A stretch of DNA of 64,000 nucleotides from Nitrospirae bacterium YQR-1 (lineage in GTDB: Bacteria; Nitrospirota; Thermodesulfovibrionia; Thermodesulfovibrionales; Magnetobacteriaceae): NCBI GenBank assembly GCA_039908095.1, contig JAMOBJ010000002.1, positions 23,331 to 87,330 on the forward strand, written 5' to 3'. A program made the translations under genes and the position numbers. Below the pieces are notes generated by a model that saw only the letters and a list, made by a program, of their open reading frames with translations, did no database searches and had not been told where the DNA came from. Below are positions 6,943-60,097 of this stretch, piece after piece. Position 1 is the stretch's first letter, and every line of letters begins with the position of its first letter.

Positions 6943-7347
6943 ATGAAAATACTGATAGCTGATGATGACTATTCAAGCCGTACAATGCTGCAGAGCTTTC
7001 TGGAAAACTACGGGGATGTTGACGTTACTATAAACGGCTCCGAAGCTATTGCTGCTTTTCTAAGTGCCATTGAAGCCGGATATCCCTATGGCCTCATTTG
7101 TCTTGATATTATGATGCCGGAGATGGATGGAATCAGCGCTTTAGCACACATTCGCAGCAAAGAAAAGGCGATGGGGATTACACCGGACAAAGAGGTCAAA
7201 ATCATTATGACTACAACCCTTGATGCCCCTTCAGACTTAATTGACGCTTTCTACAAGGGGGTAAACAGGTGTAACGATTATACTACAAAACCTGTTGATT
7301 TACAAAAACTTACTGAAATACTTGAAAAATACGGTTTATCGAGATGA
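6943..7347 (+). CDS. Single-domain CheY-like response regulator
   Basis: MKILIADDD..LDIMMPEMDG..TTKP receiver motifs. AGGAGG 6929-6934 lies 8 nt before the ATG. Confidence 0.85.
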   Translation: MKILIADDDYSSRTMLQSFLENYGDVDVTINGSEAIAAFLSAIEAGYPYGLICLDIMMPEMDGISALAHIRSKEKAMGITPDKEVKIIMTTTLDAPSDLIDAFYKGVNRCNDYTTKPVDLQKLTEILEKYGLSR

Positions 7348-7384: not shown

Positions 7385-9961
7385 TCAGCGGATTTCACCT
7401 TGTGGTTTTAAAAGCAGCGTTGTGATTTCTTTTATAACTTTCTCTGATTCAAATTGTATATTTTCTATAAAATTTAGTATTTTTGCCTCTTCATTCTGAA
7501 AACTACCCTTTAATTCCTTAAGCGCAAGCTCCATTCTAAAAGCCTCACTTCTGAGCCCTGTAGCTCCCACATTTGCAGACATTCCAATAATCAAATGTAT
7601 GTGACTCTTTAATCCTTCCAAATTGCGGGCTTCAAACAACGATTTAAGTAAAGCTATCCGCCCCGGTGCATCCTCTGTGAAGGCTTGCCACATGTCTCTG
7701 AGAACCCTCTCATCATTTTGAACTCTCTGTAGTACCTTTTTTACATTTAGTGACATGCCGGAGGTTCTCTGAGCCGGTTGATGTAAAACGGCGGGCTGTG
7801 ACCTGGAAAGATAATCAGTGCCGGAGTGCTGCCTAATAAATGGTGTTTCAGCAGCTACATGCCTTGAAGCTGTATGCTTGTCAATCATGTTATACAACTC
7901 ATCGGCATCCACCGGTTTTGAAATATAATCAGAAGCTCCCGCCTCAAGACAATGCTCTCTATCTCCTTTTAGCGCATGGGCTGTCATGATAATTACCGGG
8001 ACATCTTTATTTATCTCACACTCTTTTGCACCCCTTATGTGCCGTGTTGCCTCTAAGCCGTCCATAACGGGCATCTGTACGTCCATGATGATGAGATCGA
8101 AGTAGTTCTCAGAGAGCTTATCTATAGCCTCCCGTCCGGTTCCTGCCACATCAGGGAAAATCCCCCGCCTCTGCAGCAACTTCACTGTAAGTGTTTGATT
8201 TACCACATCATCATCAGCGATTAAAACTCTAAGTGCCCTTCTTGACTCAAGCACTCTGTGGCGGTTCAAAAGCAACGCTATGGGGTTATCCCAATTCTCA
8301 GTCAGTATAGAAAGTACTTCCATTAAATCAGACTTGTAAATCGGTTTGACTAAAAACCCTGAAATGCCAAGCTCACGGCACTGTGCCTCATCTACATTTA
8401 AACCTGATGAGATGAGCATAATCACTTTTACCTGTGATAGCCTCTCCATAGACTTCATATTTCTTGAAAAAGCAAATCCGTCCATGTCTGTCAGTTGGAA
8501 ATCTACAATAACTATATTATATTGTACAGTTGACCATGTAAGCATACCGGAGGCCTCATAGCCCCCTGAGGCCGTATCAACGTAAAACCCCTCACCTCTG
8601 AGTATATCGGCCAATCTCCTGCAGGTGGAGGCATTACTATCCACTAATAGTATGCGCTTGCCGGTTACATCAATCTTTTCTGTTGACGAGGCTGAAAGAA
8701 CAGGCCCTGATGATGCTGAAAACCCGGCAGTGAAATGAAAAGTGCTGCCCTTGCCTGGTTTGCTTTCCACCCAAACCTCACCACCAAGCATTGCCACTAT
8801 TTTTTTCACTATTGCAAGCCCAAGCCCCGTGCCCTCATATTTTTTGGTTGCAAACTCCTCAAGCATGGTAAAACTGTCAAAAATTATGCCCAGCTTTTCT
8901 CCTGGAATACCTATCCCTGTATCAGAGACTGAAAAATGTAACAAATACGGCTGGTTCACAAACGGCGGTTCTGTTTTTGTAATATGGTGTGCCATGTCAG
9001 CCTTTAACTCTATTTTACCCTTCTCCGTAAATTTTATTGCGTTGCCGATAAGATTAACCAACACCTGTTTCAACAGGCCTGAGTCTCCTCTTAATGCTGC
9101 CGGTACATTTGGCGAGATTTCAGTGCTAAACATAACCCCCTTGTTTGCAGCCGTAATAATTAAGGGCTCTGTTGTGGTTTTTATTGTACTAATCAAATTA
9201 AAGTCCGCTTCCTTTATCTCCATTTTACCGGCTTCTATTTTAGAAAAATCCAGGATACCGTTTAAGAGATCAAGGAGGTGAGCTGCCGAGTTTTTAACAA
9301 TAGTGAGATACTCTCTCTGCTGCGTATCAACAAGAGTATCCAGTGCAAGGTTAGTCATCCCTATTATACCGTTTAAGGGGGTGCGAAGCTCATGGCTCAT
9401 GTTAGCTAAAAATACACTTTTTGCTTTGTTTGCAGCCTCGGCTGACTCTTTAGCCTTGTGCAGCTCTGCTTCAGTTTGCTTACGTCTGCTTATGTCTCTT
9501 ATAATGCCTGTATAAAAACTATCGCCCTTTGCCTGCCACAGGGCAAGAGATATTTCTACCGGAAATTCCTTGCCGTCTTTCTTTAGCGCTTCCAGCTCAA
9601 AGGTCTTTCCTATCAGGTTTGATTTCCCTGTCTGCGATACTCTCTTTACTCCTTCTTTGTGCTTTTGCCTGAACTTCTCAGGAATTATTATTGTAATATC
9701 ATTACTCACTGCCTCTTGTGCAGAATAACCGAATATATACTCCGCCGCTCTGTTCCAATAGATTATCTCATGGTTGCCGTCTATTGTTATAATCGCATCA
9801 CCGGCGGTGTCCAATACCGATTGCAGCTTTTTCTGATAGATTTCAAGTGATTTGTCGGCATACTGCCGCAATGCTTTCTCTTGTTTTAATTCCTCGTGAG
9901 CTTTACTTAGTCTCTCTATGAGTTCATCGGTGTTCTTATCCGTGGATTTCATCATAGTCAT
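7385..9961 (-). CDS. Hybrid sensor histidine kinase (PAS-HisKA-HATPase-REC-REC-HPt)
   Basis: PAS (IYWNRAAEYIFGY), H-box SHELRTPLNGI, ATPase boxes (DTGIGIP, GTGLGLAI), two receivers (VDFQLTDMDG; MDVQMPVMDG..SKP), and a C-terminal HPt-like HLIIGMSANVGA. Confidence 0.9.
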   Translation of the reverse strand: MTMMKSTDKNTDELIERLSKAHEELKQEKALRQYADKSLEIYQKKLQSVLDTAGDAIITIDGNHEIIYWNRAAEYIFGYSAQEAVSNDITIIIPEKFRQKHKEGVKRVSQTGKSNLIGKTFELEALKKDGKEFPVEISLALWQAKGDSFYTGIIRDISRRKQTEAELHKAKESAEAANKAKSVFLANMSHELRTPLNGIIGMTNLALDTLVDTQQREYLTIVKNSAAHLLDLLNGILDFSKIEAGKMEIKEADFNLISTIKTTTEPLIITAANKGVMFSTEISPNVPAALRGDSGLLKQVLVNLIGNAIKFTEKGKIELKADMAHHITKTEPPFVNQPYLLHFSVSDTGIGIPGEKLGIIFDSFTMLEEFATKKYEGTGLGLAIVKKIVAMLGGEVWVESKPGKGSTFHFTAGFSASSGPVLSASSTEKIDVTGKRILLVDSNASTCRRLADILRGEGFYVDTASGGYEASGMLTWSTVQYNIVIVDFQLTDMDGFAFSRNMKSMERLSQVKVIMLISSGLNVDEAQCRELGISGFLVKPIYKSDLMEVLSILTENWDNPIALLLNRHRVLESRRALRVLIADDDVVNQTLTVKLLQRRGIFPDVAGTGREAIDKLSENYFDLIIMDVQMPVMDGLEATRHIRGAKECEINKDVPVIIMTAHALKGDREHCLEAGASDYISKPVDADELYNMIDKHTASRHVAAETPFIRQHSGTDYLSRSQPAVLHQPAQRTSGMSLNVKKVLQRVQNDERVLRDMWQAFTEDAPGRIALLKSLFEARNLEGLKSHIHLIIGMSANVGATGLRSEAFRMELALKELKGSFQNEEAKILNFIENIQFESEKVIKEITTLLLKPQGEIR

Positions 9962-10007
9962 CAGTGTTTATATTATATCTGAAATACTGTTGAATTTGCA
10001 CGAAACT

Positions 10008-10150
10008 TATACCAAGTTGCATTCATTCGATTAACTTTGTTGGCTTCGTCGAAAGCTCCTTGACGTCTCCCCTAAAGGGGAAATCCCCTGTTAAGGGGAG
10101 GTGTCGCTTTCTCCTTGCCGCCTCGTTACTCTTTTGACTGCTACTTGGTA
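10008..10150 (+). mobile_element. MITE-like element, full copy (143 bp)
   Basis: ATACCAAGTTGCATTCATTCGATTAAC...GTTACTCTTTTGACTGCTACTTGGTAT. Imperfect terminal inverted repeats, central double hairpin at 10061-10104, no ORF. Confidence 0.8.
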
Positions 10151-10199
10151 TTATTTCAGATAAATGCTGCCGAAATCCGATTATTTCAACATTTATATC

Positions 10200-10209
10200 G
10201 GATTTCGGG
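10200..10209 (+). promoter_or_regulatory. GGATTTCGGG motif (copy 1), with inverted partner CCGAAATCCGAT at 10169-10180
   Basis: The exact 10-mer is shared with 54526-54535 (+) and 34784-34793 (-). Each copy lies upstream of a promoter-like sequence in the gene orientation. Confidence 0.3.
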
Positions 10210-10243
10210 TGCTATATAAAGTATAAAAAAAGCTGCTGTAATG

Positions 10244-10252
10244 TGGTATAAT
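10244..10252 (+). promoter_or_regulatory. Extended -10 element (TGgTATAAT) upstream of the isochorismatase-family gene
   Basis: TGGTATAAT at 10244-10252. No convincing -35. Confidence 0.35.
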
Positions 10253-10349
10253 AAACTTTGTACATATGGAAAGGATAGGAATTTATGTTGTACATTTTGA
10301 AAAAATTTATCTTGAGTAAATAACCGGTAATTGTGTAAATTAGCATACG

Positions 10350-10895
10350 ATGAATATATTTACGCTAAACTCAGACGACACTGCTTTACTGATTGTAGAT
10401 ATTCAGGAAAAGTTAGCTGCGGTTACAGAGGGCAGGGAGGACGTTATAATTAATACCGGCCATCTTATTGAGACGGCACGGCTTCATAATATGCCGATAA
10501 TAGTAACCGAACAGTACCCTAAGGGCATTGGGCATACTGTGAAGAAACTTAAGGATGCGCTGGAAGGGACAGAGATTTATGAAAAAATAACTTTCAGCGC
10601 CTGTGGTATAGACAATTTCTATGAAAAACTTCAAAAGAGGCCTAAGGTGTTGCTCTGTGGGATAGAGACCCACATCTGCGTCCTGCAGACTGCTCTGGAT
10701 TTATTAAACAAGGGTTATGTAGTTCATGTTGTAAGTGATTGTGTCTCATCCAGGAAGAGTTATAATAAGGAAACAGGCCTGAGTTTTATGCACGACGCCG
10801 GGGCTGTGATAACAACTGCCGAGACGGCGATTTTTCAGATATTAAAACAGGCGGCAACCGACAACTTTAAAGCCATATCAAAGAGGATAAAATAG
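10350..10895 (+). CDS. Isochorismatase-family cysteine hydrolase
   Basis: LLIVDIQEKL, IIVTEQYP, LCGIETHICVLQTALDLL motifs are typical of the isochorismatase fold. Confidence 0.8.
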   Translation: MNIFTLNSDDTALLIVDIQEKLAAVTEGREDVIINTGHLIETARLHNMPIIVTEQYPKGIGHTVKKLKDALEGTEIYEKITFSACGIDNFYEKLQKRPKVLLCGIETHICVLQTALDLLNKGYVVHVVSDCVSSRKSYNKETGLSFMHDAGAVITTAETAIFQILKQAATDNFKAISKRIK

Positions 10896-10896
10896 C

Positions 10897-11352
10897 ATGA
10901 GCAATGGGACGGTAGTGGATTTCTCAAAAGACGTGGATGGGCTGAAAAGCCGGATATTTTATGATATTTTAAATATCGTGGGGCGTGTGTTTGTAATAGT
11001 GCGGCATGCACCTGATGTTGTAATCGGGCAGCGGGGTTTTTTAGATACCGAGAAGCACAACGGATTGGTGTTGGTATTTAATCAGAGAATGGACTTTACA
11101 TGGGGAGCAAACGGCTTGATAGAGGCGGTGTTGCAGTTTGACGGCAAACCCGAGACCTGCTCAATTCCGTCAGAGCACATCCTGGCCATATACTCCCCTG
11201 AAATCCAGGTTCAGTTTGTTTCCATGTACCAAAGGGAAGATATAAACAGCCCAGTGGAAAACGGTACAGGCAAGGATGAGACGACAGCCGGGCAGCAGAG
11301 CTCTTACGATAATGTGCTTAGGGTGGATTTCACAAAGAAAAAGAAAAAATAA
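10897..11352 (+). CDS. SspB-like ClpXP adaptor (stringent starvation protein B family), tentative
   Basis: [36 protein letters not shown] aligns by eye with the SspB core (IVLNIAP..ARFGG..VSVPLAAVLAIYARE). The C-terminal VLRVDF resembles the LRVVK ClpX-binding tail. Confidence 0.5.
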
Positions 11353-11354
11353 AC

Positions 11355-13223
11355 GTGCCGCACCTTAAGTCTTACGATGTAATAGTTGTCGGGGGCGGCC
11401 ATGCCGGCACTGAGGCTGCCCTTGCTGCTGCAAAGATGGGGCTTAGTACCTGTCTTTTTACTATGAGTCTTGACACCATAGGGCAGCTCTCTTGTAATCC
11501 CGCAATTGGAGGCCTTGCCAAAGGCCATATTGTCAGAGAAATAGACGCTATAGGCGGTATAATGGCAAAGGCTGCCGATTTTTCAGGTATTCAGTTCCGT
11601 CTGCTTAACCGCTCCAAAGGGCCCGCTGTCTGGTCCTTACGGGCACAGGCCGATAGGGTACTTTACAGGGTATTCATAAAACGGGTACTTGAGGAGGCGG
11701 AAAATCTCGATATCAAACAAATCGCCGTTACGGAACTCATCAGTGACAACACTAAAAACCGTGTAACCGGAGTGGTGACAGCCCTTGGCACTCAGTACCT
11801 GAGTAAGGCTGTAATTGTAACGACCGGCACGTTTTTAAACGGTCTTATTCATATCGGATTGAGGAGTTTTTCAGCGGGAAGAGCCTGGGAGTTTCCATCA
11901 TCGGGGCTTTCTGAGTCGTTAAGCGCTCTGGGGTTGAAAATCGGCAGGCTTAAAACCGGAACGCCTCCCAGATTAGACGCCAAAACAATAAATTTTGATA
12001 AAATGGAGGCTCAGTGGGGCGATACTCCCCCTGTGCCGTTTTCCTTTTCCACGGAGGAAATCCTAAACACTCAACTGCCCTGTTACATCACCTACACAAA
12101 TGAAAAAACCCATGAAATAATACGGGATTCACTTGACCGCTCACCTCTGTATAGTGGTAAGATCAGCGGCGCCGGCCCTCGTTATTGTCCCTCCATAGAG
12201 GATAAAGTTGTGAGATTTTCACAAAGAGAGCGGCATCAGGTGTTTTTGGAGCCCGATGGGCTTAAGACCTCTGAGTACTATGCCAACGGGATTTCAACAA
12301 GCCTCCCCCTGGATGTGCAAACCGAGCTGGTGCACAGCATTGAGGGGCTTGAGGGGGCGGAGCTGATGCGCCCGGGGTATGCCGTGGAGTATGACTTTGT
12401 GTATCCGGCATGTTTAAGGCATACACTGGAGGTTAAAGATATCGGGGGGCTCTACCTTGCCGGCCAAATAAACGGCACCTCAGGGTACGAGGAGGCTGCC
12501 GCTCAGGGTCTTGTCGCAGGTATAAATGCCGCCCTGAAAATAAAAGGTAAACCGCCTATGGAACTTATGCGCCATGAGGCCTACATTGGGGTTATGATTG
12601 ATGACCTTGTAACCCTTGGCATTACCGAACCCTACCGGATGTTTACCTCACGGGCTGAGTACAGGTTGCTGCTTAGAAATGACAACGCCGAGCTGCGCTT
12701 AAAAGACAAGGGTTTTGCCTCAGGGCTAATTGATGAGACCATGTACGGGCGCTACCAAAAAAAACTGGCTTCATTCAATGCCGAGGTACTGAGGTTTAAA
12801 AGCACTCGTATTAAGCCTTCCATGATAAACGGCAAGCTTCTGGAAAGGCAACTGTCCCAGCTTAATGAACCGGCAACGCTTGAGCAGTTACTGAAGAGGC
12901 CGGGCATAGATTACACATTTCTTGAGAGCATTAGTCCGCCTGAAATTGAGCTTTCCCTTGATCTGAAACTGCTTGTGGAGGCGGAGATAAAATATGAGGG
13001 ATACATAAAGCAACAGCAGATGCTTGTTGATAAGATGCAGCGGCTTCAGTACAAACGTATCACCGATGATTTTAATTATGGGGAAATCGGCGGCCTTTCA
13101 ACTGAGTCACTTATGAAACTTACTGAGATAAGGCCGGAGACTGTCGGGCAGGCACAGAGGATTCCAGGTGTGACCCCCTCCGCAATTTCAATGATTTTAG
13201 CATACCTTGAAAAAAGAAAATAA
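11355..13223 (+). CDS. mnmG: tRNA uridine-5-carboxymethylaminomethyl modification enzyme MnmG (GidA)
   Basis: [23 protein letters not shown] motif. Full-length GidA-like sequence with a GTG start. Confidence 0.95.
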
Positions 13224-29173: not shown

Positions 29174-29214
29174 TACTGCTGACGCATATCATTAGTCCTT
29201 CAAACCTACACCTT

Positions 29215-29356
29215 ATACCAGGTTGCATTCATTCGATTAACTTTGTTGGCTTCGTCGAAACCTCCTTGACGTCTCCCCTAAAAGGGGATTCCCCTGTAAA
29301 GGGAGGTGTCGCTTTCTCCTTGCCGCCTCGTTACTCTTTTGACTGCAACCTGGTAT
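29215..29356 (+). mobile_element. MITE-like element, full copy (142 bp)
   Basis: ATACCAGGTTGCATTCATTCGATTAAC...TTTTGACTGCAACCTGGTAT. Both termini carry the compensating A->G / T->C change. It overlaps the stop region of the MinD-like gene. Confidence 0.8.
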
Positions 29357-30257
29357 TACTGGTTAGTGCCATTGCTATTTTCAGGATTGATTTTGAAAAC
29401 TCCGACTGAGGGCTTGTCGTCATAACCGGTTTGAGAGTAAGTATCGCTTTTTTTACAGCGTCATCCTCAGGGATATATTCTAATACGTTACTCTCAATCC
29501 CCACATAATCTTTAAGGAGTTTTGAAATTACTTTCCCGACTTGAGCATCGTTTTTGCTTTGAAGCCGGTTTATCACAATATCGGGAATGAAACTACGCAG
29601 TTTCTCTCTGGCTAAAGCCGCAGTGGCAGGACTTAATTTTGCCGCCTCATTAAGTACGCTTTCAATGGATTTTAAATGTGGATTTTCAACAACGTCCTTA
29701 GCCCTCTCTACAATGTCAAGCAAGTCAACCACTTTAGCATCCCTAAAGATCACTGTCAGTAACCTGAAAACCGCAGTTTTTATAAAGGTATAGACTTTCA
29801 TTAAAGAGGTGACCTCCGGTGTTGTCACCAAAAGGTTACGGTTTGCAATAAAGGCAAAATCAACAACGTTGTATGAGGAGCCTGCGGCAAGGTCTAAAAT
29901 AACAATGTCACAGTCAAGACGCGCAATGTGGTTTATTAATTTGACCTTCTGTTGAAACGATATGTTTGCAATATTATGAACATTTGTGCCGCCGCATATG
30001 ACTCTGAGGTTTTTAATGCCGGAATCTATAGCTGTCTCCTGAAGTGTCTTAACTTTCCTTAATAACAAATCCTCAAGGGTATAACGTACCTCTTTTACCC
30101 CTAAAATAGCATGAAGATTGGCCCCGCCCAAATCCAGATCAACTGCAATAACCCTCTTGCCCATCTGTGCCAGTGCGATGGCAAGGTTTGCCGATACATT
30201 TGACTTTCCTACGCCACCCTTTGGCCCCAGTATTGAGCATATTATTTTTTTATCCAT
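29331..30257 (-). CDS. MinD/ParA-family P-loop ATPase (FlhG/FleN-like)
   Basis: Deviant Walker A GPKGGVGKSNVSANLAIALAQMGKRVIAVDLDLGGANLH. The last ~8 codons and the stop are supplied by the MITE. Confidence 0.85.
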   Translation of the reverse strand: MDKKIICSILGPKGGVGKSNVSANLAIALAQMGKRVIAVDLDLGGANLHAILGVKEVRYTLEDLLLRKVKTLQETAIDSGIKNLRVICGGTNVHNIANISFQQKVKLINHIARLDCDIVILDLAAGSSYNVVDFAFIANRNLLVTTPEVTSLMKVYTFIKTAVFRLLTVIFRDAKVVDLLDIVERAKDVVENPHLKSIESVLNEAAKLSPATAALAREKLRSFIPDIVINRLQSKNDAQVGKVISKLLKDYVGIESNVLEYIPEDDAVKKAILTLKPVMTTSPQSEFSKSILKIAMALTSNTRLQSKE

Positions 30258-30281
30258 ACAGACAAGCCATGTGAGACTGTT

Positions 30282-30704
30282 TTAATCCAACTTAAGATAA
30301 AGTTTCAGGGTGTCTGTGAGTGAGGTGGATTCGCCAAAGTGTTCTTTCTTTTTTTCAGTTTTAAGGAGTTTTAGAGCCACATCAAGAATTCCCTCTGGAT
30401 CAAAAGGACTTAAAGGGCAGTAAGCTGAAGCATAAGAGCTTAAAACACTGTCATCAGGTTCAGATAAAAGCACAATATGCGAGGTTATCTCCGGTGAGAT
30501 AGTGTCGGATAACCTCTCCAGCTCACCTGGGAAAAAACTACCGCTATCCAACACCACCACACCTGGTTTCAAGGTAAACAATAACGCTCCAAAGTCCGCT
30601 ATTGCCTTATATAATGAGCTCTCGCAGCCGCCTTTCTTAAATACTTTCGATAAAACATGCCCCCGGAGTTCATCTGCCGAGAAAATTATAACCGGAACCT
30701 GCAT
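30282..30704 (-). CDS. Receiver-like (CheY-fold) protein, probably a pseudo-receiver
   Basis: Beta-alpha pattern VIIFSAD / VVVLDSG / IVLLSEP / PLSPFDP. The acceptor-position Asp is present, but the conserved KPF Lys reads SPF and only one N-terminal acidic residue remains. Alignment by eye. Confidence 0.5.
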   Translation of the reverse strand: MQVPVIIFSADELRGHVLSKVFKKGGCESSLYKAIADFGALLFTLKPGVVVLDSGSFFPGELERLSDTISPEITSHIVLLSEPDDSVLSSYASAYCPLSPFDPEGILDVALKLLKTEKKKEHFGESTSLTDTLKLYLKLD

Positions 30705-30712
30705 TCAAAAAG

Positions 30713-31933
30713 TTACCGCTCCTCACTCATTGCCATTACAAGGGCACCTTTGGATGTGGCATTTAACGGATCCTTTGCCGACCTTACCTCAGATACTTCT
30801 ATCGGCAGCCGTATAGCCCCTATAGCTTTTTCCACTCTTTCCCTTAAGCCCTTTGGCATACATGTTCCGCCGCTTAGAACTATTGGAATAGGAGACGTTA
30901 TCTTGGGTACCTTGTCAGAGGATGCAATCACCTGCTGTAGGCTCTTAACCAGTGAGTTAATAACATCCATATAGTAAATATGAAGAGACATTTCCACTTT
31001 GTTGGCCGGCAGAATTGAAAGGTCCAGAGCCTCTTCCTTTATTACCTTTATCTTGGTGGCGGATTCGTTAACGTCTTTGCTTACCATCTCATCAATATAA
31101 TCTCCGCCTTTTTGGATGCTATAGGTGATGACCGGCACGGATAAATACGACAGGCAAATGTTACACATGCCCCCGCCCATACTTATGCCTATGCCTGTGA
31201 AATTATTGTCGGCAAGCTCCGACATAACCACGGCAAGCCCCTCATTTATTGGAACCGGAGTGTAGCCCATGGTTTCAAAAAACATCTTCAAAATTGACTG
31301 GTGCCCTATTGAAAGCACAGCGCTGCCGATTGGGTCACCCGGAACGCTGTAGCAAAGAATCTCTCCGAATTTCTTAGGTTTTTGCACAACGGTTTTTATT
31401 ATTGACTGCATGAGGGTTATACCCTCGTTCTCTCGTGAACTAAGAAAGCCTTTTTCCATAGGCCGTCTTGTATTGGTATTAAACATATTTGCAAAGTTTT
31501 CCGCAGAATAACCTATTATATAGTATTGTTTATCAAATTCTATAAAAGTGACTTCATTTTTATTGAGAATTGATTTAGTAAACCGTGACTGTGGTATTGT
31601 GAAAAAAGCATTAACCTGCTTCACTACATGAATACTGTTTCCCTTGTTTTGTGCCATAACGATATTACTTGTACCTATATCCATACCAATGGGGCCAAAG
31701 GGGCTTTCGGCGGCGGCACCCGGCTCTTTATCACTGATAACTGTAGCCTTTTCAGTAGTTCTGTAGGCTGATTCAATACGTGCATCCGACACGGGCCTGT
31801 CATAGGCCGGCGGCTGTTGTGGTGCACTGAATGAGGGTGCTGGGGGAGCGGATGGTGGTCCCTGCGCTTCTATTTCACCCAATCTCGATTTTAACCTCTC
31901 TATCTCGTACTGAAGGTCATTTTCTTCCGACAT
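30713..31933 (-). CDS. MreB/MamK-like actin homolog with an ~85-aa coiled-coil/Pro-rich N-terminal extension
   Basis: GMDIGTSNIV (phosphate 1), RRPMEKGFL (compare MreB IRPMKDGVI), GISMGGGMCNI (phosphate 2), QKGGDYIDE, IVLSGGTCMPKGL (adenosine), AKDPLNATSKGA. AGGAGG lies before the ATG. Confidence 0.8.
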   Translation of the reverse strand: MSEENDLQYEIERLKSRLGEIEAQGPPSAPPAPSFSAPQQPPAYDRPVSDARIESAYRTTEKATVISDKEPGAAAESPFGPIGMDIGTSNIVMAQNKGNSIHVVKQVNAFFTIPQSRFTKSILNKNEVTFIEFDKQYYIIGYSAENFANMFNTNTRRPMEKGFLSSRENEGITLMQSIIKTVVQKPKKFGEILCYSVPGDPIGSAVLSIGHQSILKMFFETMGYTPVPINEGLAVVMSELADNNFTGIGISMGGGMCNICLSYLSVPVITYSIQKGGDYIDEMVSKDVNESATKIKVIKEEALDLSILPANKVEMSLHIYYMDVINSLVKSLQQVIASSDKVPKITSPIPIVLSGGTCMPKGLRERVEKAIGAIRLPIEVSEVRSAKDPLNATSKGALVMAMSEER

Positions 31934-32025
31934 TAACTGCCTCCTTTTTTTACTAAACAGTTGTTTTTATGAGGTATTCCCTCATTTCTCTACATCACGG
32001 CACACTGCCGTAGCATATAACAACT

Positions 32026-32052
32026 TTATCGGTAAAATCAAGTCATACTTTA
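32026..32052 (-). promoter_or_regulatory. Sigma28 (FliA)-type promoter TAAAGTAT-N11-ACCGATAA upstream of the MreB-like operon
   Basis: Minus strand: TAAAGTAT (32052-32045), 11 nt, ACCGATAA (32033-32026). This is 14/16 against the enterobacterial consensus TAAAGTTT-N11-GCCGATAA. Confidence 0.6.
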
Positions 32053-32937: not shown

Positions 32938-32943
32938 TACGTG

Positions 32944-32992
32944 ATACCAAGTAGCCTTCAATCGTCTAACTTTGTTGGCATCGTCACAAGCC
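32944..32992 (+). repeat. MITE-family variant left-end fragment
   Basis: ATACCAAGTAGCCTTCAATCGTCTAACTTTGTTGGCATCGTC. It abuts the IS3 relic. Confidence 0.6.
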
Positions 32993-33161: not shown

Positions 33162-33272
33162 ATCTTGAGCTGTCCGATATGTACCAATAATATTCGTATG
33201 ACACAGTAAAAACCACCCTCTAAATCTCCCATGAGGGAGACTTCTACCCACCAAACCTCCCTCAAGGGAGGC
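33162..33272 (+). repeat. Second repeat family (~110 bp), copy 1
   Basis: A ~93-nt run reads identically to the reverse complement of 56555-56647. It contains hairpins TCTCCC-atga-GGGAGA and CCTCCC-tcaa-GGGAGG. Confidence 0.8.
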
Positions 33273-39453: not shown

Positions 39454-39510
39454 TTCAATATTTTAACATAATGACTTTGTTGTTGACCTCTCCGAACCTT
39501 TATATTTAAT

Positions 39511-39614
39511 TCCAATTCAAATTCAGAAGTAAACACAGGCGGCTGGGAACAAGCGATGCCTCGCTACTCTTTTGACTGCTACTTGATATTAGACGATTGA
39601 AGACAACTTGGTAT
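39511..39614. repeat. Degenerate composite of MITE end fragments
   Basis: Inverted variant right-arm CAGAAGTAAACACAGGCGGCTGGGA, then forward right end CTCGCTACTCTTTTGACTGCTACTTGATAT (to 39589), then inverted left-end TAGACGATTGAAGACAACTTGGTAT (39590-39614). Confidence 0.55.
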
Positions 39615-41310: not shown

Positions 41311-43020
41311 ATGGAATCAGATTTATTACCAAATGACAATAATCAGACAGATGACCTTGATGATTTATTCGCTGAGGACACTGAGGGGCAATCCGCTGCG
41401 GCAGGAAGTGAAGATAAGTGGAAAGTCATCATAGTTGACGATGAGCCCGGCGTACACGACGCCACTATTCTGAGCTTAATGGATATAGTTTTTGATAATA
41501 AAAAAATTAATTTTCTACAGGCATATTCCGGCACAGAGGCAAAAACGCTCATCGAAAATAACCCGGACAGTTGCATTATGCTGCTGGATGTCGTTATGGA
41601 GACGGATGACGCCGGCCTTCAGGTTGTAAAACATATTCGCAATGTACTAAAGAATAACCTCCTTCGCATAATTCTGAGAACCGGACAGCCCGGACAGGCC
41701 CCCGAGGAGGAGGTCATCATGCAATACGAAATCAACGACTATAAGTCAAAGAGCGAGCTCACCAAACAGAAACTATTTACGACACTTATCTCAGCCTTGC
41801 GGGACTATAGAAATCTCGTTACAATTGACGGTGCTAAAAGGGGGCTTGAGCAAATTATAGCGGCTTTCCCGACCCTTTTTGAAGTCCAGTCTATGGATGA
41901 CTTTATCTCCGGCATCCTGACTCAGTTGTCTTCTCTGTTAAGACTCGAGGAAAACTCAATGTTTCTCGATTCTTCCTTTATTGCCTACAACAGCTCAAAG
42001 ACCATCACTATAGTCAAGGGAACAGGCATCTTCAGGGATGACAGCGGCAAGCCTGCAAAAGATGTGCTGGCAGCCGGTGAGTTTGAAATGCTCCTTCGTG
42101 CCGAGACACAACAGAAAAACATATTTGCCAAAAACACTTGTGTGGTTTATTTTAGAAATAAAACCAACCTCTACAATATGATCTATATAAACAGCCACAG
42201 GGAACTCAACGAAATAGACAAAAACATGGTGGAAATATTCTGCAACAACATCTCTATGGCTTTTGAAAATATAGAAAAGCAGAAAATCCGTGAATCTATG
42301 AAACTGGCCAGAGATATTCAATTGGGTATGCTGCCTGTAAACTTCTCCGACATCATGGAACATGGAATTGACCTGTATGCTTCTATGCAGCCTGCAAGAG
42401 AAGTTGGGGGCGACCTCTATGATTTCTTTTTTATAAATGACACAAAATTGTGCTTTATCATTGGGGATGTAACCGACAAAGGGGTACCGGCAGCGTTTTT
42501 TATGGCTGTCACAAAGACACTGCTTCGGGCTGTTGCTAAAATCTACTCCGATACCGGTGAAATTCTCCGTATTGTCAACAATGACTTGTGCAGAGACAAC
42601 GAGAAGTCTATGTTTGTAACTCTCTTTATCGGGATTATAGATACCTCAACCGGTTTATGCTCATACAGCAACGGCGGCCACAACCCTCCGTATATTGTTT
42701 ACAACTCAGGAGAGATAAAGCAGCTTAAGTTAAGCGAAGGCATCCCACTTGGCATTATGGAACAATCGGAATACGCAAATGATAAGTTTATCTTTTCCAG
42801 TGGTGATACTATCTTTCTCTACACTGACGGCGTAACGGAGGCCATGGATACCGAGAGTCAGATTTTTGATGAGAGCAGACTTGAAGATGTGCTGAAGGAA
42901 AACCGCGGCAACGCATCAAGAACTATTGTGGAAAATGTTGTAAGCACTCTTGGCAAGTTTACAGCCGGCGCAGAACAGTCCGATGATATAACGATATTAT
43001 GCCTGAAATGGAAGAGTTAG
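41311..43020 (+). CDS. Response regulator fused to a PP2C/SpoIIE-family protein phosphatase
   Basis: Receiver VIIVDDEPG..LLDVVMETDDAG, and phosphatase REVGGDLYDFF, IGDVTDKGVPAAFFMA, GGHNPP, LYTDGVTEA. Confidence 0.88.
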   Translation: MESDLLPNDNNQTDDLDDLFAEDTEGQSAAAGSEDKWKVIIVDDEPGVHDATILSLMDIVFDNKKINFLQAYSGTEAKTLIENNPDSCIMLLDVVMETDDAGLQVVKHIRNVLKNNLLRIILRTGQPGQAPEEEVIMQYEINDYKSKSELTKQKLFTTLISALRDYRNLVTIDGAKRGLEQIIAAFPTLFEVQSMDDFISGILTQLSSLLRLEENSMFLDSSFIAYNSSKTITIVKGTGIFRDDSGKPAKDVLAAGEFEMLLRAETQQKNIFAKNTCVVYFRNKTNLYNMIYINSHRELNEIDKNMVEIFCNNISMAFENIEKQKIRESMKLARDIQLGMLPVNFSDIMEHGIDLYASMQPAREVGGDLYDFFFINDTKLCFIIGDVTDKGVPAAFFMAVTKTLLRAVAKIYSDTGEILRIVNNDLCRDNEKSMFVTLFIGIIDTSTGLCSYSNGGHNPPYIVYNSGEIKQLKLSEGIPLGIMEQSEYANDKFIFSSGDTIFLYTDGVTEAMDTESQIFDESRLEDVLKENRGNASRTIVENVVSTLGKFTAGAEQSDDITILCLKWKS

Positions 43021-46351: not shown

Positions 46352-48405
46352 CAGAGATTGTACAAAATATGTCCCCTGCTGTCATTGCCACTCTGAAGCG
46401 GGAATCCAGTCCTTTTTCTCCCCCCTTTTTTCCCACCGGCAGTGAAAGGCACAGGGGCTTTTTTTTGAAGATTCTTACTGTAAGCCTTTTGTTGATGTTA
46501 CATGTAAGCATGGTATTTGCTGAGACCGGTGATAAACAGGAAAAACATGTTTTAATTATCAACTCTTATAATTATGGTTATACATGGACAAATAACGAGA
46601 TAAAGGGGATAGAGTCTGTTTTAGGAAACAAAAATAACATTATACTTTACACTGAATATATGGATACCAAAATAGCAAACGACAGTAAGTATCAGGCTAT
46701 GTTAAGAGAAATGTATAAGCATAAGTATAACCAAATCAAGTTTGATGTCATTATAATTACGGATGACGATGCGCTGGAATTTGTAAAAACGTACCATGAG
46801 GAAGTTTTTGGCGGAGTACCGGCAGTGTTTTGCGGGATCAACAATTTTAACGATAGTAAAATAGCAGGTTATGAAAAACATTTTACCGGAGTTAATGAAG
46901 AGGCTGATTTTAAGTCAACAATAGATTTTGCTTTGAAATTAAATCCAAAGTTAAAGAGCTTTATAGTAATAAACGACAGAATGACGTCAGGGATTTTATT
47001 AAAAAAAGAATTTATGGATAAAACGGCAGGGTATGGTGACACTGTTAAATTCACATTTATAGATAATGCCACACTGTCAGAGGTTAAGGAGGCAGTAAGG
47101 AATCTTAATACTCAGGATAGTGCCTTGTTTTATTTATCTTTTTTTAAGGACAGCAGTGGGCAGTATTATGCGCCTTCAGAGGCAATTTATGAGATAGCAA
47201 GTGCGGCTAATGTACCTATGTATGGAGCCGTGGATTATATGCTGGGGCATGGGATAGTCGGAGGCATGCTAAAAAACAGTTTCTATCAAGGAGAGACGGC
47301 AGGCAAACTTGCACTGCGAATATTACACGGAGAAAAACCCGGTGACATTCCTGTAATCAGTGAAAGCCCTAACTCGTTTATGTTCGATTACAACATACTA
47401 CAGAAATTTGATATTGATCTCTCATCACTACCGGCCGGAGCTAATGTCATAAACAAACCTGAAACATTCTATTACAAATACAAGCACATAATTTGGGGAG
47501 TTACTACACTTATAACCGTACTGGTTGTTTTTATCGTTATTCTCCTTATCAACATACGGCAGCGAATAAAAGCACAAAGGGAATTGATAAAATATCAGGA
47601 CCATTTGGAAGAGCTCGTTACGGAACGTACAAACGAGTTAAAGAAAGCTAACCAGCAGTTGGTGGAGGCTGAGAAGATGGCAGCCCTTGGCGCACTGGTA
47701 GCAGGTGTGGCGCATGAGATAAATACTCCTGTGGGGATAGCCGTCACCACAGCCTCGCATCTTCAGGATGTAACAAGAAAACTTTCCGATGCCATCAACA
47801 ATAAGACTGCAAAAAAGGAAGAGCTGTTTAACTACTTCACACACGCCACAAAATCCAGCGAGTTGATTTTAACGAATCTTGAGCGTACCAGTGAACTTGT
47901 GAAGAGTTTCAAGATGGTCTCAGCCGATCAGACCTCTCATGAGAAGCGTGTGTTTAACGTCAGGGAATACATAGAGAAGGTGATAACGAGTCTGAGTCCG
48001 AAATTAAAACAGACATCCATAGAAATCAGACTGGAGTGTCCTCCTGATTTAGAACTAAACAGTTATCCAGGGGCTTTAGCGCAGATAATAACAAATTTTG
48101 TTATAAACTCTCTTATGCACGCCTATGGAGATAAAGCAAAAGGAATAATCACTATAGAAATCATAAAAGGTGATGACACGTTATCGTTAAAGTACAGTGA
48201 TAACGGAAGGGGAATTCCTGAGGAGAATCTGAGCAAAATATTTAATCCTTTTTTTACAACAAACAGAGCCGGCGGCGGCACCGGACTTGGACTGCACATA
48301 CTTTATAATCTTATAACCCAGACGTTCAAAGGTAACATTACTTGCGAAAGCGTTTTAGGAGAGGGAACCACCTTTACAATTACAATACCGAAAGATTTGG
48401 AGTAA
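46348..48405 (+). CDS. Sensor histidine kinase with periplasmic ABC-substrate-binding-like domain
   Basis: SBP-like domain, TM (IIWGVTTLITVLVVFIVILLI), H-box VAGVAHEINTPVGI, DNGRGIP, GTGLGLHI. The true start may be TTG 46465, because a REP-like palindrome occupies 46381-46407. Confidence 0.88.
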   Translation: MTEIVQNMSPAVIATLKRESSPFSPPFFPTGSERHRGFFLKILTVSLLLMLHVSMVFAETGDKQEKHVLIINSYNYGYTWTNNEIKGIESVLGNKNNIILYTEYMDTKIANDSKYQAMLREMYKHKYNQIKFDVIIITDDDALEFVKTYHEEVFGGVPAVFCGINNFNDSKIAGYEKHFTGVNEEADFKSTIDFALKLNPKLKSFIVINDRMTSGILLKKEFMDKTAGYGDTVKFTFIDNATLSEVKEAVRNLNTQDSALFYLSFFKDSSGQYYAPSEAIYEIASAANVPMYGAVDYMLGHGIVGGMLKNSFYQGETAGKLALRILHGEKPGDIPVISESPNSFMFDYNILQKFDIDLSSLPAGANVINKPETFYYKYKHIIWGVTTLITVLVVFIVILLINIRQRIKAQRELIKYQDHLEELVTERTNELKKANQQLVEAEKMAALGALVAGVAHEINTPVGIAVTTASHLQDVTRKLSDAINNKTAKKEELFNYFTHATKSSELILTNLERTSELVKSFKMVSADQTSHEKRVFNVREYIEKVITSLSPKLKQTSIEIRLECPPDLELNSYPGALAQIITNFVINSLMHAYGDKAKGIITIEIIKGDDTLSLKYSDNGRGIPEENLSKIFNPFFTTNRAGGGTGLGLHILYNLITQTFKGNITCESVLGEGTTFTITIPKDLE
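46381..46407 (+). repeat. REP-like palindrome GTCATTGCC-N-GCGGGAATCC
   Basis: Related to 19524-19548 and 61184-61263. Confidence 0.4.
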
Positions 48406-48410
48406 TAGTT

Positions 48411-48498
48411 ATACCGAGTTGCAGTCAGAAGAGTAACGAGGCGGCTGGGAGCTTTCGACGATGCCAGCAAAGTTAAATGATTGGATGCAACTTGGTAT
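48411..48498 (-). mobile_element. MITE-like element, short internally deleted copy (88 bp), inverted
   Basis: ATACCGAGTTGCAGTCAGAAGAGTAACGAGGCGGC...GCCAGCAAAGTTAAATGATTGGATGCAACTTGGTAT. It lacks the central hairpin cassette and starts 6 nt after the HK stop. Confidence 0.75.
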
Positions 48499-48616
48499 TA
48501 CGCCTCTGCGGATTCCGGCTTTCATATTGACAAAAATAAAGAAATATTATTTACTATAATATCTGTAGAATAGTTCTCCGTTTGTGGGATGCTACTATTA
48601 ATTAAGGAGGTATGTA

Positions 48617-49318: not shown

Positions 49319-49387
49319 CTTTCTTTTACCCACTCAAAAGTGAAAGAACAATTTTTTGAAAATTTTACTTGACATCACGGTTGCTTT

Positions 49388-49452
49388 AGGGGAGACGTCA
49401 AGGAGCTTCCGGCGAAGCCAACAAAGTTAATCGAATGAATGCAACTCGGTAT
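49388..49452 (-). repeat. MITE left half, inverted
   Basis: Reverse complement reads ATACCGAGTTGCATTCATTCGATTAACTTTGTTGGCTTCGCCGGAAGCTCCTTGACGTCTCCCCT. It supplies the last codons and stop of the radical SAM gene. Confidence 0.75.
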
Positions 49453-50365
49453 TACTATAGTTTTTTCCCTGATAGCTGCCGCTATCGGTAAACATCCGAT
49501 CAATGTCACGGATGATTTGTTGTCTTGTCTTATTCCATATGGGAGCAATCAGGATGTCATCAGGAGCAGTTGCAAAAAGCCTTTGAAGGATGAGGCGTGG
49601 AGAGAGCTTTTCTATAAATTCCAAAATAAAATTGAGATATTCCTCGTATGAAAAAACATAAAAATGTTTTTTTTCATAAATTCTGCATAATTCCGTGCCT
49701 TTTATTATTTGTAGTTGGTGGATTTTAAGAAAATTAACAGGTAAAGCCGAGATGAACCCTGCCATATCCATCATCTCCTGCCGGGTTTCGGTGGGAAAGC
49801 CAACTATAATATGAGCGCTGATGTTGGTAAGTCCCATTTTAGCCGATAGTTCAATTGTCTTGAGAAAGCACTCATAATCGTGCCCTCTGTTTATAAAACT
49901 AAGGGTTTTATCATAGACAGACTGAATGCCGTACTCGATTAAAACAAAATAATCTTTTGAAATTTCCTTCAGGAGTTCCAGTTTTTCCTTATCAACAGAG
50001 TCGGGGCGCGTTCCTATGGCTATACCGATTACATTGGGATGAGACAGGGACTGGTAATATAGCCGTCTTAACTCATCTACGTGGGCATAGGTGTTTGTAT
50101 AGGGTTGAAAATATGCAATAAATTTCTTAGCCTTATAACGTTTAGAGAGGTAGGCGATACCGTTTTCCACCTGTTTGTCAACACCGAGAGCGGGTTTACA
50201 TGCCTCGGGCCTGAAGCTGTCGTTGTTACAGTAAATGCAGCCGCCATAGCCCGCTGTCCCGTCTCTGTTTGGGCAGGTAAATCCGGCATCAACATTTACT
50301 TTATATACTGTTTCACCATAGAGCGATTTCATGTAAGGGCCAAAGGAGTTAAAACCAGCCTTCAT
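49427..50365 (-). CDS. TIGR01212-family radical SAM protein (YhcC/YtqA-like)
   Basis: FTCPNRDGTAGYGGCIYCNN cluster motif and overall family-like length. Confidence 0.88.
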   Translation of the reverse strand: MKAGFNSFGPYMKSLYGETVYKVNVDAGFTCPNRDGTAGYGGCIYCNNDSFRPEACKPALGVDKQVENGIAYLSKRYKAKKFIAYFQPYTNTYAHVDELRRLYYQSLSHPNVIGIAIGTRPDSVDKEKLELLKEISKDYFVLIEYGIQSVYDKTLSFINRGHDYECFLKTIELSAKMGLTNISAHIIVGFPTETRQEMMDMAGFISALPVNFLKIHQLQIIKGTELCRIYEKKHFYVFSYEEYLNFILEFIEKLSPRLILQRLFATAPDDILIAPIWNKTRQQIIRDIDRMFTDSGSYQGKNYSNTELHSFD

Positions 50366-56537: not shown

Positions 56538-56647
56538 GCCCCCTTTGAAGGGGGTTTGGGGGTAGAAGTCTCCCTCATGGGAGATTTAGAGGGTGGTTTT
56601 TACTGTGTCATACGAATATTATTGGTACATATCGGACAGCTCAAGAT
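56538..56647 (-). repeat. Second repeat family (~110 bp), copy 2 (inverted)
   Basis: Reverse complement of 33162-33272. The terminal hairpin differs (CCCCC-tttgaa-GGGGG vs CCTCCC-tcaa-GGGAGG), but pairing is kept. Confidence 0.8.
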
Positions 56648-56707
56648 AGGGGGGAGGCGCCGCTTTCTCCCAGCCGCCTGTGTTTACTTCTGACTGCAAC
56701 TTGGTAT
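56648..56707 (+). repeat. MITE right half (variant arm)
   Basis: AGGGGGGAGGCGCCGCTTTCTCCCAGCCGCCTGTGTTTACTTCTGACTGCAACTTGGTAT. Confidence 0.7.
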
Positions 56708-56811
56708 CAATTGGTCTAATACAGAAATTTTTTCTTTCAGCAGGAACATTTTTCTTATAAGACATCTGAAAAAGTGTGTTACCCTCAGGTAACCAATTGC
56801 TTTACCACCTA

Positions 56812-56951
56812 ATACCAAGTTGCATTCATTCGATTAGCTTTGTTGGCTTCGTCGAAAGCTCCTTGACGTCTCCCTTAAAGGGGAATCCCCTATGAGGGGA
56901 GGCGTCGCTTTTTCCAGCCGCCTGTGTTTACTTCTGACTGCTACTTGGTAT
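56812..56951 (+). mobile_element. MITE-like element, full copy (140 bp, variant right arm)
   Basis: ATACCAAGTTGCATTCATTCGATTAGC...CCAGCCGCCTGTGTTTACTTCTGACTGCTACTTGGTAT. Confidence 0.8.
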
Positions 56952-58037: not shown

Positions 58038-58124
58038 GGAGAGGTGGCTGAGCGGTTGAAAGCGACGGTCTTGAAAATCGTTGTAGGTGCAAATCTACCG
58101 TGGGTTCGAATCCCACCCTCTCCG
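58038..58124 (+). tRNA. tRNA-Ser (anticodon UGA)
   Basis: Acceptor GGAGAGG/CCTCTCC, 3-bp D stem, anticodon loop CTTGAAA, long variable arm, T loop GGTTCGAATCC. CCA is not encoded. Confidence 0.9.
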
Positions 58125-58315
58125 CTCCATAAGCCATTCTACAGTGTTTTTTTATTCAAATTTCATATAAACATCCCAGTGGATAACCACAAAAAAATCT
58201 TGTTTTAATGTGCGCTTCATTGGAATGTCCTTATTTAATAGTCAACATTGGTCAACGGCCTATTTTTGAATTTGAATTAAAAAACATTGTAGAATGGTAG
58301 CCAACATGGGTTTAT

Positions 58316-58392
58316 TGGCGCGCCCAGGAGGAGTCGAACCCCCAACCTTCGGATCCGTAGTCCGACGCTCTGTCCAGTTGAGCCATGGGCGC
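58316..58392 (-). tRNA. tRNA-Arg (anticodon ACG)
   Basis: Reverse complement reads GCGCCCATGGCTCAACTGGACAGAGCGTCGGACTACGGATCCGAAGGTTGGGGGTTCGACTCCTCCTGGGCGCGCCA. Cloverleaf folds, and CCA is encoded. Confidence 0.9.
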
Positions 58393-58400
58393 TATCGTTG

Positions 58401-58495: not shown

Positions 58496-58523
58496 TTAAG
58501 TTTTTCCAAAATACTACCGATAA
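58496..58523 (+). promoter_or_regulatory. Sigma28 (FliA)-type promoter TTAAGTTT-N12-ACCGATAA upstream of the flagellin locus
   Basis: -35 at 58496-58503 (7/8 to TAAAGTTT), -10 at 58516-58523 (7/8 to GCCGATAA). Same ACCGATAA as the promoter at 32026-32033. Confidence 0.55.
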
Positions 58524-58585: not shown

Positions 58586-58693
58586 TAAGTGTTAACAGTG
58601 TTTAGGTATTGTAAGGATACAGTACCGTAAAGCTCACTGGGCACGACAATAAAAAAGTAGTAAGTTAAATATTTGTTTTTAGGTTTAAAACGG

Positions 58694-58706
58694 CAGCCGG
58701 ATGCTG
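58694..58706 (+). promoter_or_regulatory. Leader hairpin CAGC-cGGAt-GCTG (candidate CsrA site), copy 1
   Basis: Stem extendable to GGCAGC/GCTGTC. 44 nt before ATG 58738, which is preceded by AAGGAGG. Confidence 0.45.
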
Positions 58707-58737
58707 TCAGAATTGGTGAAATTACAAGGAGGTTGAC

Positions 58738-58800
58738 ATGACTTTAATAACTGCAGCAACAATAATAATTCTCCATCACAAACTTATCAACGATACATAA
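58738..58800 (+). pseudogene. 20-codon ORF MTLITAATIIILHHKLINDT, apparently a decayed flagellin 5' end
   Basis: It has the same hairpin-SD-ATG leader layout as both flagellins. The nucleotide string ATGAC-TTTAATAAC..GCAACAATAATAATTCTCCATCACA resembles ATGGCATTTGTAATAAAC..ACAAACATAATGTCCCTCAATTCACA. Confidence 0.35.
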
Positions 58801-58891
58801 CCGCTGTCAGCTTAATTTATTTAAGATTATAAATTAAGTATATAGACGGTGTTGTATCAGAACCGTTAAGTGCAATTACTATTAAAACTAG

Positions 58892-58904
58892 TAGCCGGAT
58901 GCTA
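58892..58904 (+). promoter_or_regulatory. Leader hairpin TAGC-cGGAt-GCTA (candidate CsrA site), copy 2
   Basis: Stem extendable to 8 bp (CTAGTAGC/GCTATTAG). 43 nt before ATG 58935. SD GGAGG at 58924-58928. Confidence 0.45.
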
Positions 58905-58934
58905 TTAGACTAAAACGACACATGGAGGTTTATC

Positions 58935-59945: not shown

Positions 59946-60084
59946 AAAAATACTGATAAAGCAGGAGGATAACAGAATTGGGTTGTAATCCCAATAAGTT
60001 GAATTATTGAAATATTTGGAGGTGTATGAGATGTAGAATTAGTGTTTATAGTATTAGGACATATTGACTTGTAGATTAACCGAA

Positions 60085-60097
60085 TAGCTGGATGCTA
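60085..60097 (+). promoter_or_regulatory. Leader hairpin TAGC-tGGAt-GCTA (candidate CsrA site), copy 3
   Basis: Stem extendable to 7 bp. 40 nt before ATG 60125. SD GGAGG at 60114-60118. Confidence 0.45.

Follow-up and report, generated by a model that had tools for sequence, protein, structure and literature searches.

Mad28 is an actin-like magnetosome protein reported to form filaments and to rescue a mamK mutant in part (PMC10653835), to bind liposomes and to localize following cell curvature, a dependence that has been compared with that of MamY (PMC12713370). In Solidesulfovibrio magneticus RS-1, the N-terminal amphipathic helix region of Mad28 is required for filament formation (PMC12713370), and deletion of mad28 moves the magnetosome chain off the positively curved side (bioRxiv 10.1101/2025.02.24.639979). 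Filament formation and the association with membrane and curvature have been demonstrated for the Mad28 proteins of RS-1, Desulfamplus magnetovallimortis BW-1 and Mbav only (PMC10653835, PMC12713370). Within the Nitrospirota, mad28-30 lie dispersed outside the magnetosome cluster, as the genome paper of strain YQR-1 also reports (PMC9840458); some genomes of the phylum hold two mad28 paralogues (PMC9376291), and a 2.6-kb region of Candidatus (Ca.) Magnetomonas plexicatena LBB01, far from the main magnetosome cluster, has been described as containing "mad28, mad29 and a hypothetical protein" (Uzun et al. 2022, PMC9376291). Here, we analyzed a stretch of 64,000 nucleotides (nt) from Nitrospirae bacterium YQR-1 (contig JAMOBJ010000002.1, positions 23,331 to 87,330; hereafter the window), a magnetotactic Nitrospirota strain that was collected magnetically (Liu et al. 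2022, PMC9840458). On its minus strand the window encodes, in this order, an actin-like protein, a small protein and a deviant-Walker-A ATPase (Table 1).

We conclude that these three genes are most probably a mad28/pseudo-receiver/mad29 satellite operon, a part of the magnetosome gene set found apart from the main mam/man cluster in this phylum, a reading to which we give a probability of roughly 0.7. The actin-like and small proteins are identical (100%) to H7844_02105 and H7844_02100 of YQR-1, and the open reading frame (ORF) coordinates agree with three tightly packed genes separated by gaps of 8 and 24 nt. A first-pass annotation, made from the letters of the DNA, had presented the trio as an undescribed, motility-linked positioning system. 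Since mad28 and mad29 have already been named, the same trio has been described for LBB01 (PMC9376291) and mad28-30 for the phylum, that claim fails; the mad28/mad29 gene set is already known and its residual interest is modest. What is newly added here is the identification of the middle, "hypothetical" gene as a conserved pseudo-receiver with a terminal peptide, its occurrence in cultured strains, and a FliA-type promoter motif particular to one small clade.

LBB01 (locus L081 of our survey) offers the closest comparison. Gene content and gene order agree with the window, as does the 8-nt spacing of mad28 and the small gene; identity to the window proteins is 68% for the small protein and 89% for Mad29, and the LBB01 locus shares the sigma-28-like promoter, the leader hairpins and the location far from the main magnetosome cluster. 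It differs in its flanking genes and in that the window Mad29 alone has a repeat-derived tail of 8 extra residues.

The identity of the actin is clear from profile searches. Residues 82-401 match positions 3-321 of the 321-position Pfam Volactin profile (PF25216) with an E-value of 6.4e-85 and 285.9 bits (cut-off 35). Among 1865 homologues, proteins named "Magnetosome protein Mad28" or Mad28-1 from Ca. Magnetobacterium casense, Ca. M. bavaricum and other Nitrospirota metagenome-assembled genomes are 55-66% identical to it, and a neighbour-joining tree groups the window protein within the Nitrospirota Mad28 clade. The first-pass label of an orphan MreB-like actin is thus replaced by membership of the Mad28/Volactin family: identity with MreB was rejected, as Pfam MreB_Mbl (16.9 bits, cut-off 27) and TIGR00904 (17 bits, cut-off 366) both remained below threshold and no elongasome gene lies among the flanking ORFs scanned. 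MamK identity was rejected as well: where the NCBIfam MamK model demands 400 bits, the window protein reaches 49.4 and a genuine MamK, that of MYR-1, reaches 505. A sequence search of the PDB returned no match at E<=0.01. The actin is a member of a filament-forming family and not of a non-filament branch of the acetate and sugar kinase/Hsc70/actin superfamily. All of the actin-fold motifs that had been read from its sequence are present (DIGTSN, GISMGGG, LSGGT and RPMEKG, the last being the RPMxxG loop) and are invariant across the family. The proposed Pro-rich extension ahead of the fold was also borne out, with the fold starting at residue 82; its N-terminal helix is kept in the Nitrospirota copies and is absent from the copies of about 361 amino acids (aa) in Desulfurivibrionaceae. 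Helix and linker together span some 80 residues and are peculiar to copies of the Nitrospirota type. The Mad28 proteins of RS-1 and BW-1 share with the window protein both the Pfam family and the N-terminal helix region. Volactin itself (HVO_2015 of Haloferax volcanii) belongs to one Pfam family with Mad28, and both form dynamic filaments, but volactin is archaeal, serves a rod-to-disk shape transition, and its description names no MinD-type ATPase or pseudo-receiver partner. Despite a Pfam Volactin match of about 1e-85, no paper in the literature searched mentions volactin together with Mad28.

The middle gene encodes a true receiver fold with a degenerate active site, as judged from alignments and a structural model. 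The window protein itself has no Pfam or NCBIfam match at E<=1, and only 2 of 20 family members reach Pfam Response_reg, at E>=0.044. A profile built from the 20 members, in contrast, matches receiver domains in the PDB, with Spo0F on top (E 3.9e-7). Homologue sampling mattered here: a word-indexed search found 3 proteins and an exhaustive profile search found 50 representatives, and AlphaFold gave an unusable model from a 3-sequence alignment (predicted local distance difference test, pLDDT, 38.9) but one of pLDDT 86.8 from a 44-sequence alignment. This AlphaFold2 model has a (beta-alpha)5 fold and a separate terminal helix, and Foldseek matched it to many receivers with probability 1.00 and template-modelling (TM) scores of 0.7-0.8. 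The first-pass annotation had described a degenerate CheY-fold receiver that keeps the acceptor Asp and reads SPF for KPF, and the fold, Asp53 at the end of beta3 and the missing Lys were all confirmed. The Lys position of KPF, which precedes the beta5 cis-Pro, is occupied by S, T, D, F or V in the family, the conserved Thr/Ser position after beta4 is variable, and S9-A10, part of a conserved FSAD stretch, stand where receivers have the Mg-binding acidic pair behind beta1, an assignment made by eye as the HMMER alignment to Spo0F starts after beta1. A receiver that lacks both the acidic pair and the Lys would not be capable of canonical phosphorylation. Every member of the family terminates in a conserved D.L...L..FL.LK peptide, which the model places in a separate helix (residues 129-136) past a low-confidence linker (residues 120-127). 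Two cultured strains, FSS-1 and BW-1, likewise have a pseudo-receiver (E 3e-16 and 1e-22, respectively, by hhalign) with the same C-terminal motif, and in the loci compared the gene always stands between mad28 and mad29.

The third gene encodes a MinD/ParA/FlhG-type ATPase, as first annotated, with a deviant Walker A motif and matches to Pfam CbiA, ParA and AAA_31. Homologues that are 42-58% identical carry the name Mad29 in Ca. Magnetoovum chiemensis, Ca. M. bavaricum (Mad29-2), F. magnetotacticus and uncultured Nitrospirae, and in at least 20 loci mad29 is a neighbour of mad28. The PDB entries nearest to it are FleN (1e-21, over residues 6-161 only) and archaeal MinD, and the similarity to FleN/FlhG and to archaeal MinD is confined to about residues 6-190. 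Hallmarks of FlhG and FleN are an extension at the N-terminus that activates FlhF, a helix at the C-terminus that targets the membrane, and a flhF-flhG-fliA context. Members of the Mad29 family have only about 8 residues ahead of Walker A, and orthologues stop right behind the last core helix; with a minimal N-terminus and no C-terminal extension, Mad29 therefore lacks the terminal motifs of both FlhG and MinD. Membership of the FlhG/FleN family was rejected on the absence of the FlhF-activating motif, the membrane-targeting helix and, in the loci with annotated neighbours, flagellar genes beside the trio. Membership of MinD was rejected too: the signature Lys is present, yet scores fall below the NCBIfam cut-offs (minD_arch 122 bits, cut-off 202; minD_bact 78 bits, cut-off 213), there is no C-terminal amphipathic helix, and neither minC nor minE lies near the trio in the window.

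The window Mad29 has 308 aa against 300 in its orthologues, 8 additional C-terminal residues that arise because a repeat copy overlaps the 3' end of the gene, such that roughly the final 9 codons and the stop come from a dispersed repeat. The repeat belongs to a MITE- or REP-like family (miniature inverted-repeat transposable element; repetitive extragenic palindromic) of about 150 nt that is intergenic and occurs in both orientations across the window, with copies at 10000-10153, 29212-29358, 32941-32991, 33162-33268, 39506-39614, 48404-48500, 49384-49461, 56541-56951 and 63708-63861.

A survey of 80 genomic loci supports treatment of the three genes as one module. The order actin, small protein, ATPase is kept in at least 22 of the 80, in both Nitrospirota and Desulfobacterota, confirming that the trio is co-conserved in other genomes. 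A MamK-like actin follows it in three loci (L056, L058 and L057); in L071-73, in a contig from the Joint Genome Institute (JGI; L085) and in FSS-1 it lies downstream of genes for a HEAT-repeat Mad23-like protein and Mad24-27-like proteins. The Desulfobacterota trios sit within magnetosome clusters. BW-1 and FSS-1, the latter a strain of F. magnetotacticus and a relative of RS-1, resemble the window in having mad28, then the pseudo-receiver and Mad29, with the pseudo-receiver gene directly ahead of mad29, and differ from it in that the genes lie inside the magnetosome cluster behind mad23-26 and in that BW-1 has an extra STAS-domain gene. The remaining loci have no recurrent neighbour family save Mad23-26-like and MamK-like genes, and wherever neighbours were annotated, none of those beside the trio is a gene for flagella or chemotaxis.

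As an observation on BW-1 (L089), the STAS-domain gene (6989-7297) lies between mad28 and the pseudo-receiver gene, and a REC-SpoIIE-HATPase_c_2 protein (REC, receiver) is encoded just downstream of mad29 (9834-12134); together the two look like a partner-switching module. The window also encodes a REC-DUF3369-SpoIIE protein, at 41311-43020.

Table 1. Coordinates of the features of the mad28 operon within the window
Feature	Position	Strand	Basis or remark
mad28 gene, 406 aa	30713..31933	minus	ORF; Pfam PF25216 Volactin
Mad28 N-terminal extension, residues 1-81: short helix (EIERLKSRLGEIE), then Pro/Gln-rich linker	31691..31933	minus	outside the Pfam domain
Pseudo-receiver (REC-fold) gene, 140 aa	30282..30704	minus	"hypothetical" in the annotation of all sources
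Asp53 codon, phospho-acceptor position	30546..30548	minus	invariant in 44 homologues; aligns with Spo0F D54
C-terminal conserved peptide S.L.D.LK.YLKLD	30285..30329	minus	alignments; sits beyond a variable linker
mad29 gene, 308 aa	29331..30257	minus	Pfam CbiA, ParA, AAA_31
Deviant Walker A of Mad29, GPKGGVGKS	30201..30227	minus	G, P, K, G, G, G and K invariant; V and final S vary
Sigma-28-like motif TAAAGTAT-N11-ACCGATAA	32026..32052	minus	exact; 93 nt ahead of the mad28 ATG
Structured mad28 5' leader, hairpins GGCAGUGUGCC and GAGGGAAUACCUC	31934..32020	minus	RNAfold z = -3.75
Copy of the dispersed intergenic repeat of about 150 nt	29212..29358		repeat families D2-D5; overlaps the mad29 3' end

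Upstream of mad28, the sigma-28-like motif that had been reported matches the FliA consensus TAAAGTTT-N11-GCCGATAA at 14 of 16 positions, with N11 spacing, and we confirmed it at the same place. The exact pattern TAAAG-N15-CCGATAA did not arise in any of 100 dinucleotide-preserving shuffles of the window. When the whole 64 kb were scanned with the sigma-28 consensus, two sites came out on top, each matching at 14/16 positions and both intergenic and correctly oriented: the mad28 site and a site ahead of the flagellin locus, TTAAGTTT-N12-ACCGATAA (58496-58523). The two do share a -10 element, as had been observed, namely ACCGATAA, which stands at 58516-58523 in the flagellin-locus site. Across YQR-1, LBB01 and an nDJH6-like genome, 25 of the 27 nt of the mad28 motif are invariant, and homology is lost upstream of it because the flanking genes differ. 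The hairpins of the structured leader are kept in the same three genomes with one compensatory pair (A-T to G-C); an Rfam scan of the locus, leader included, found no credible match. A simple sigma-70 scan called no promoter upstream of the window mad28. Among 25 orthologous and paralogous upstream regions, however, only those of the nearest relatives carry the sigma-28 motif, and other clades have TTGACA-N17-TATAAT or TTACAA-N17-TATAAT upstream of mad28. A sigma-28-type promoter is not an ancestral property of the mad28 operon. Of the claim that the operon is sigma-28-driven, then, the motif stands, as does its retention in three close genomes, whereas it is absent from most orthologues; for the YQR-1/LBB01/nDJH6 clade, the motif and its conservation leave the odds of sigma-28 dependence roughly even. 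No paper found in our literature search ties magnetosomes to a FliA promoter.

In our reading, Mad28 would form membrane-associated, curvature-sensitive filaments and put the magnetosome chain at the appropriate surface of the cell, as shown for the family elsewhere. Mad29 is predicted to be a MinD/FlhG-like ATPase that dimerizes in an ATP-dependent manner like other deviant-Walker-A ATPases, and the pseudo-receiver to be a non-canonical one that keeps an invariant Asp and has a tethered, amphipathic C-terminal peptide. The two would act together with Mad28, the pseudo-receiver probably serving, by way of its tethered terminal helix, as an adaptor or ATPase partner that couples Mad29 either to the filaments of Mad28 or to the chain. 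The outcome would be help in positioning or partitioning magnetosome chains. In the YQR-1/LBB01/nDJH6 clade, the operon is apparently read from the sigma-28-type promoter, which may bring co-expression with late flagellar genes. The part of the first-pass proposal that survives is therefore the cytoskeletal positioning device with a pseudo-receiver as adaptor, which is plausible for a co-conserved module; the part that does not is its flagellar or chemoreceptor role.

Assemblies of this kind have analogues. BacNOP/PadC/ParA of Myxococcus is a filament-adaptor-ParA system, and McdAB, FlhG/FleN and MinDE are cargo systems. Such triads have a common architecture of cytoskeletal scaffold, small adaptor and deviant-Walker-A ATPase, and the partners of deviant-Walker-A ATPases usually work through a short peptide. 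By this analogy, the trio would differ from the bactofilin-type triads in that its scaffold is an actin and its putative adaptor a pseudo-receiver with a C-terminal peptide. The magnetoskeleton of Magnetospirillum (MamK/MamJ/MamY) is alike in positioning the magnetosome chain by means of an actin, and unlike the trio in that it has no ParA/MinD ATPase, MamJ and MamY are unrelated proteins, and the window actin falls far below the MamK cut-off. A bolder version of our reading, in which the Magnetomonas-like clade has had its mad28 operon captured by the flagellar sigma factor and in which the trio is an unrecognized, peptide-coupled tripartite machine of actin plus ParA for positioning an organelle, we regard as unlikely, if worth stating.

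Several observations weigh against a magnetosome-dedicated operon with a sigma-28 promoter. Gene order is the sole basis for predicting that Mad29 and the pseudo-receiver interact with Mad28. Judged from 40 scanned flanking ORFs, the YQR-1 trio is neither in nor beside a magnetosome cluster. Actins of the Mad28 family occur commonly in Desulfurivibrionaceae that are apparently non-magnetotactic, which means that the family is not in itself specific to magnetosomes. In some Nitrospirota there is a second mad28 copy that lacks both mad29 and the small gene, and that copy could be the magnetosome-dedicated one. With respect to the promoter, 20 other trio loci have no sigma-28 motif, and sigma-70-like hexamers align at that place; in six Magnetominusculus-type orthologues TTGACA-N18-TAATAT is aligned there and CCGATAA has become CAGACAA and similar sequences. 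In the window itself, a weaker sigma-70-like TTGATT-N16-TATATG overlaps the sigma-28 motif.

In the rival that best survives, the trio copy would be a general, non-magnetosome cytoskeleton acting, for instance, in cell shape, at the division site or on other cargo, while the cluster-edge mad28 paralogue, where present, would serve the magnetosomes. The trio does lie among housekeeping genes in YQR-1 and LBB01, in differing contexts, and the archaeal volactin functions in cell-shape transitions. That some Nitrospirota have two mad28 paralogues fits as well; the second copy of Ca. M. casense is at the edge of the mam cluster, beside MamK, MamP and MamM. The family is also widespread in Desulfurivibrionaceae and Desulfobulbaceae, in about 40 loci (L012-L080) of which a lone Mad28-family actin has a conserved HrpA/pentapeptide-repeat/PBP1A context. 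These non-magnetotactic-looking lineages, however, have the actin alone, without the two partner genes, whereas the magnetosome clusters that contain the full trio are those of Desulfobacterota and of some Nitrospirota. Moreover, the neighbour-joining tree identifies the extra mad28 copies as lineage-specific duplicates, that is, as recent paralogues and not ancient functional classes. We therefore consider a general role for the trio improbable, although not negligible, and prefer the satellite operon of the magnetosome gene set.

The lone actins merit a description of their own. Their carriers include cultured Desulfurivibrio and Hydrosulfovibrio species, and the gene is divergent from hrpA and followed by genes for an 850-aa pentapeptide-repeat protein and a class A penicillin-binding protein (e.g. 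L037, 3938-15065). A pentapeptide-repeat protein is also encoded two genes past the cluster-edge mad28 of Ca. M. casense.

Flagella or chemoreceptor arrays were the cargo originally envisaged, with a sigma-28-driven device that positions or counts them and Mad29 acting like FlhG. The promoter speaks for this, in that the mad28 site has the -10 of the flagellin-locus site, as do the presence of FleN/FlhG among the closest solved relatives of Mad29 and the automated JGI naming of Mad29 homologues as FlhG. Set against these are the genomic linkage, which is to mam/mad genes, with the trio inside magnetosome clusters elsewhere and no flagellar or chemotaxis gene among its annotated neighbours; a Mad29 that has neither the FlhF-activating N-terminus nor the C-terminal membrane-targeting helix and scores below the NCBIfam MinD cut-offs; and a sigma-28 motif limited to one small clade. 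We judge a flagellar or chemoreceptor device very unlikely. Least likely of all, and barely to be entertained, is a cassette for DNA segregation, in which a ParM-like actin, a ParA-type partition system or both would be carried on a mobile segment: actin-like and ParA-like proteins are classical partition motors, salactin (a related archaeal actin) assists DNA partitioning, close relatives have the module in differing contexts and dispersed repeats bracket it in the window, but there is no ParB/ParR-like DNA-binding gene, centromere-like repeat, integrase or plasmid gene, the mad/mam linkage is stable across two phyla, and the flanking repeats were rejected as a mobility signal because the same repeat fills many intergenic regions of the window and is hence not module-specific.

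Beyond the trio, the ORFs scanned in the window encode housekeeping functions (gapA, pgk, dnaB, mnmG, leuS, uvrA and glycosyltransferases). As the first-pass annotation had noted for the elongasome and mam genes, no mam, mreCD, rodA or pbp2 gene was found among the 40 flanking ORFs by Pfam scan, in which the 1907-aa ORF at 1006-6729 was not included. Two flagellins are also encoded, at 58935-61135. Each flagellin leader and an upstream mini-ORF of 20 codons has a hairpin AGC(C/T)GGATGCT with GGA in the loop, together with a GGAGG Shine-Dalgarno sequence (hairpins at 58690-58740, 58880-58934 and 60060-60091), an arrangement reminiscent of the pair of sites at which CsrA binds Bacillus hag mRNA. 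By eye, two tRNA-like sequences are found between an EF-hand gene and the flagellin locus, at 58040-58130 on the plus and 58320-58395 on the minus strand, just upstream of the flagellin-side sigma-28-like site.

Altogether, genetic dissection now addresses Mad28 and not yet its two constant neighbours. The presence of the pseudo-receiver in cultured strains provides a concrete candidate for regulating Mad28 filaments or for linking them to the MinD-like ATPase. A FliA-type promoter, if true, would be the first case, in the literature searched, of regulation that ties placement of the magnetosome chain to assembly of the flagella. Likewise, if the tripartite reading holds, the trio would be a hybrid of actin plus ParA, conserved from Nitrospirota to Desulfobacterota, in which the L...L..FL.LK peptide of a non-phosphorylatable receiver couples a MinD/FlhG-like ATPase to curvature-sensing actin filaments.

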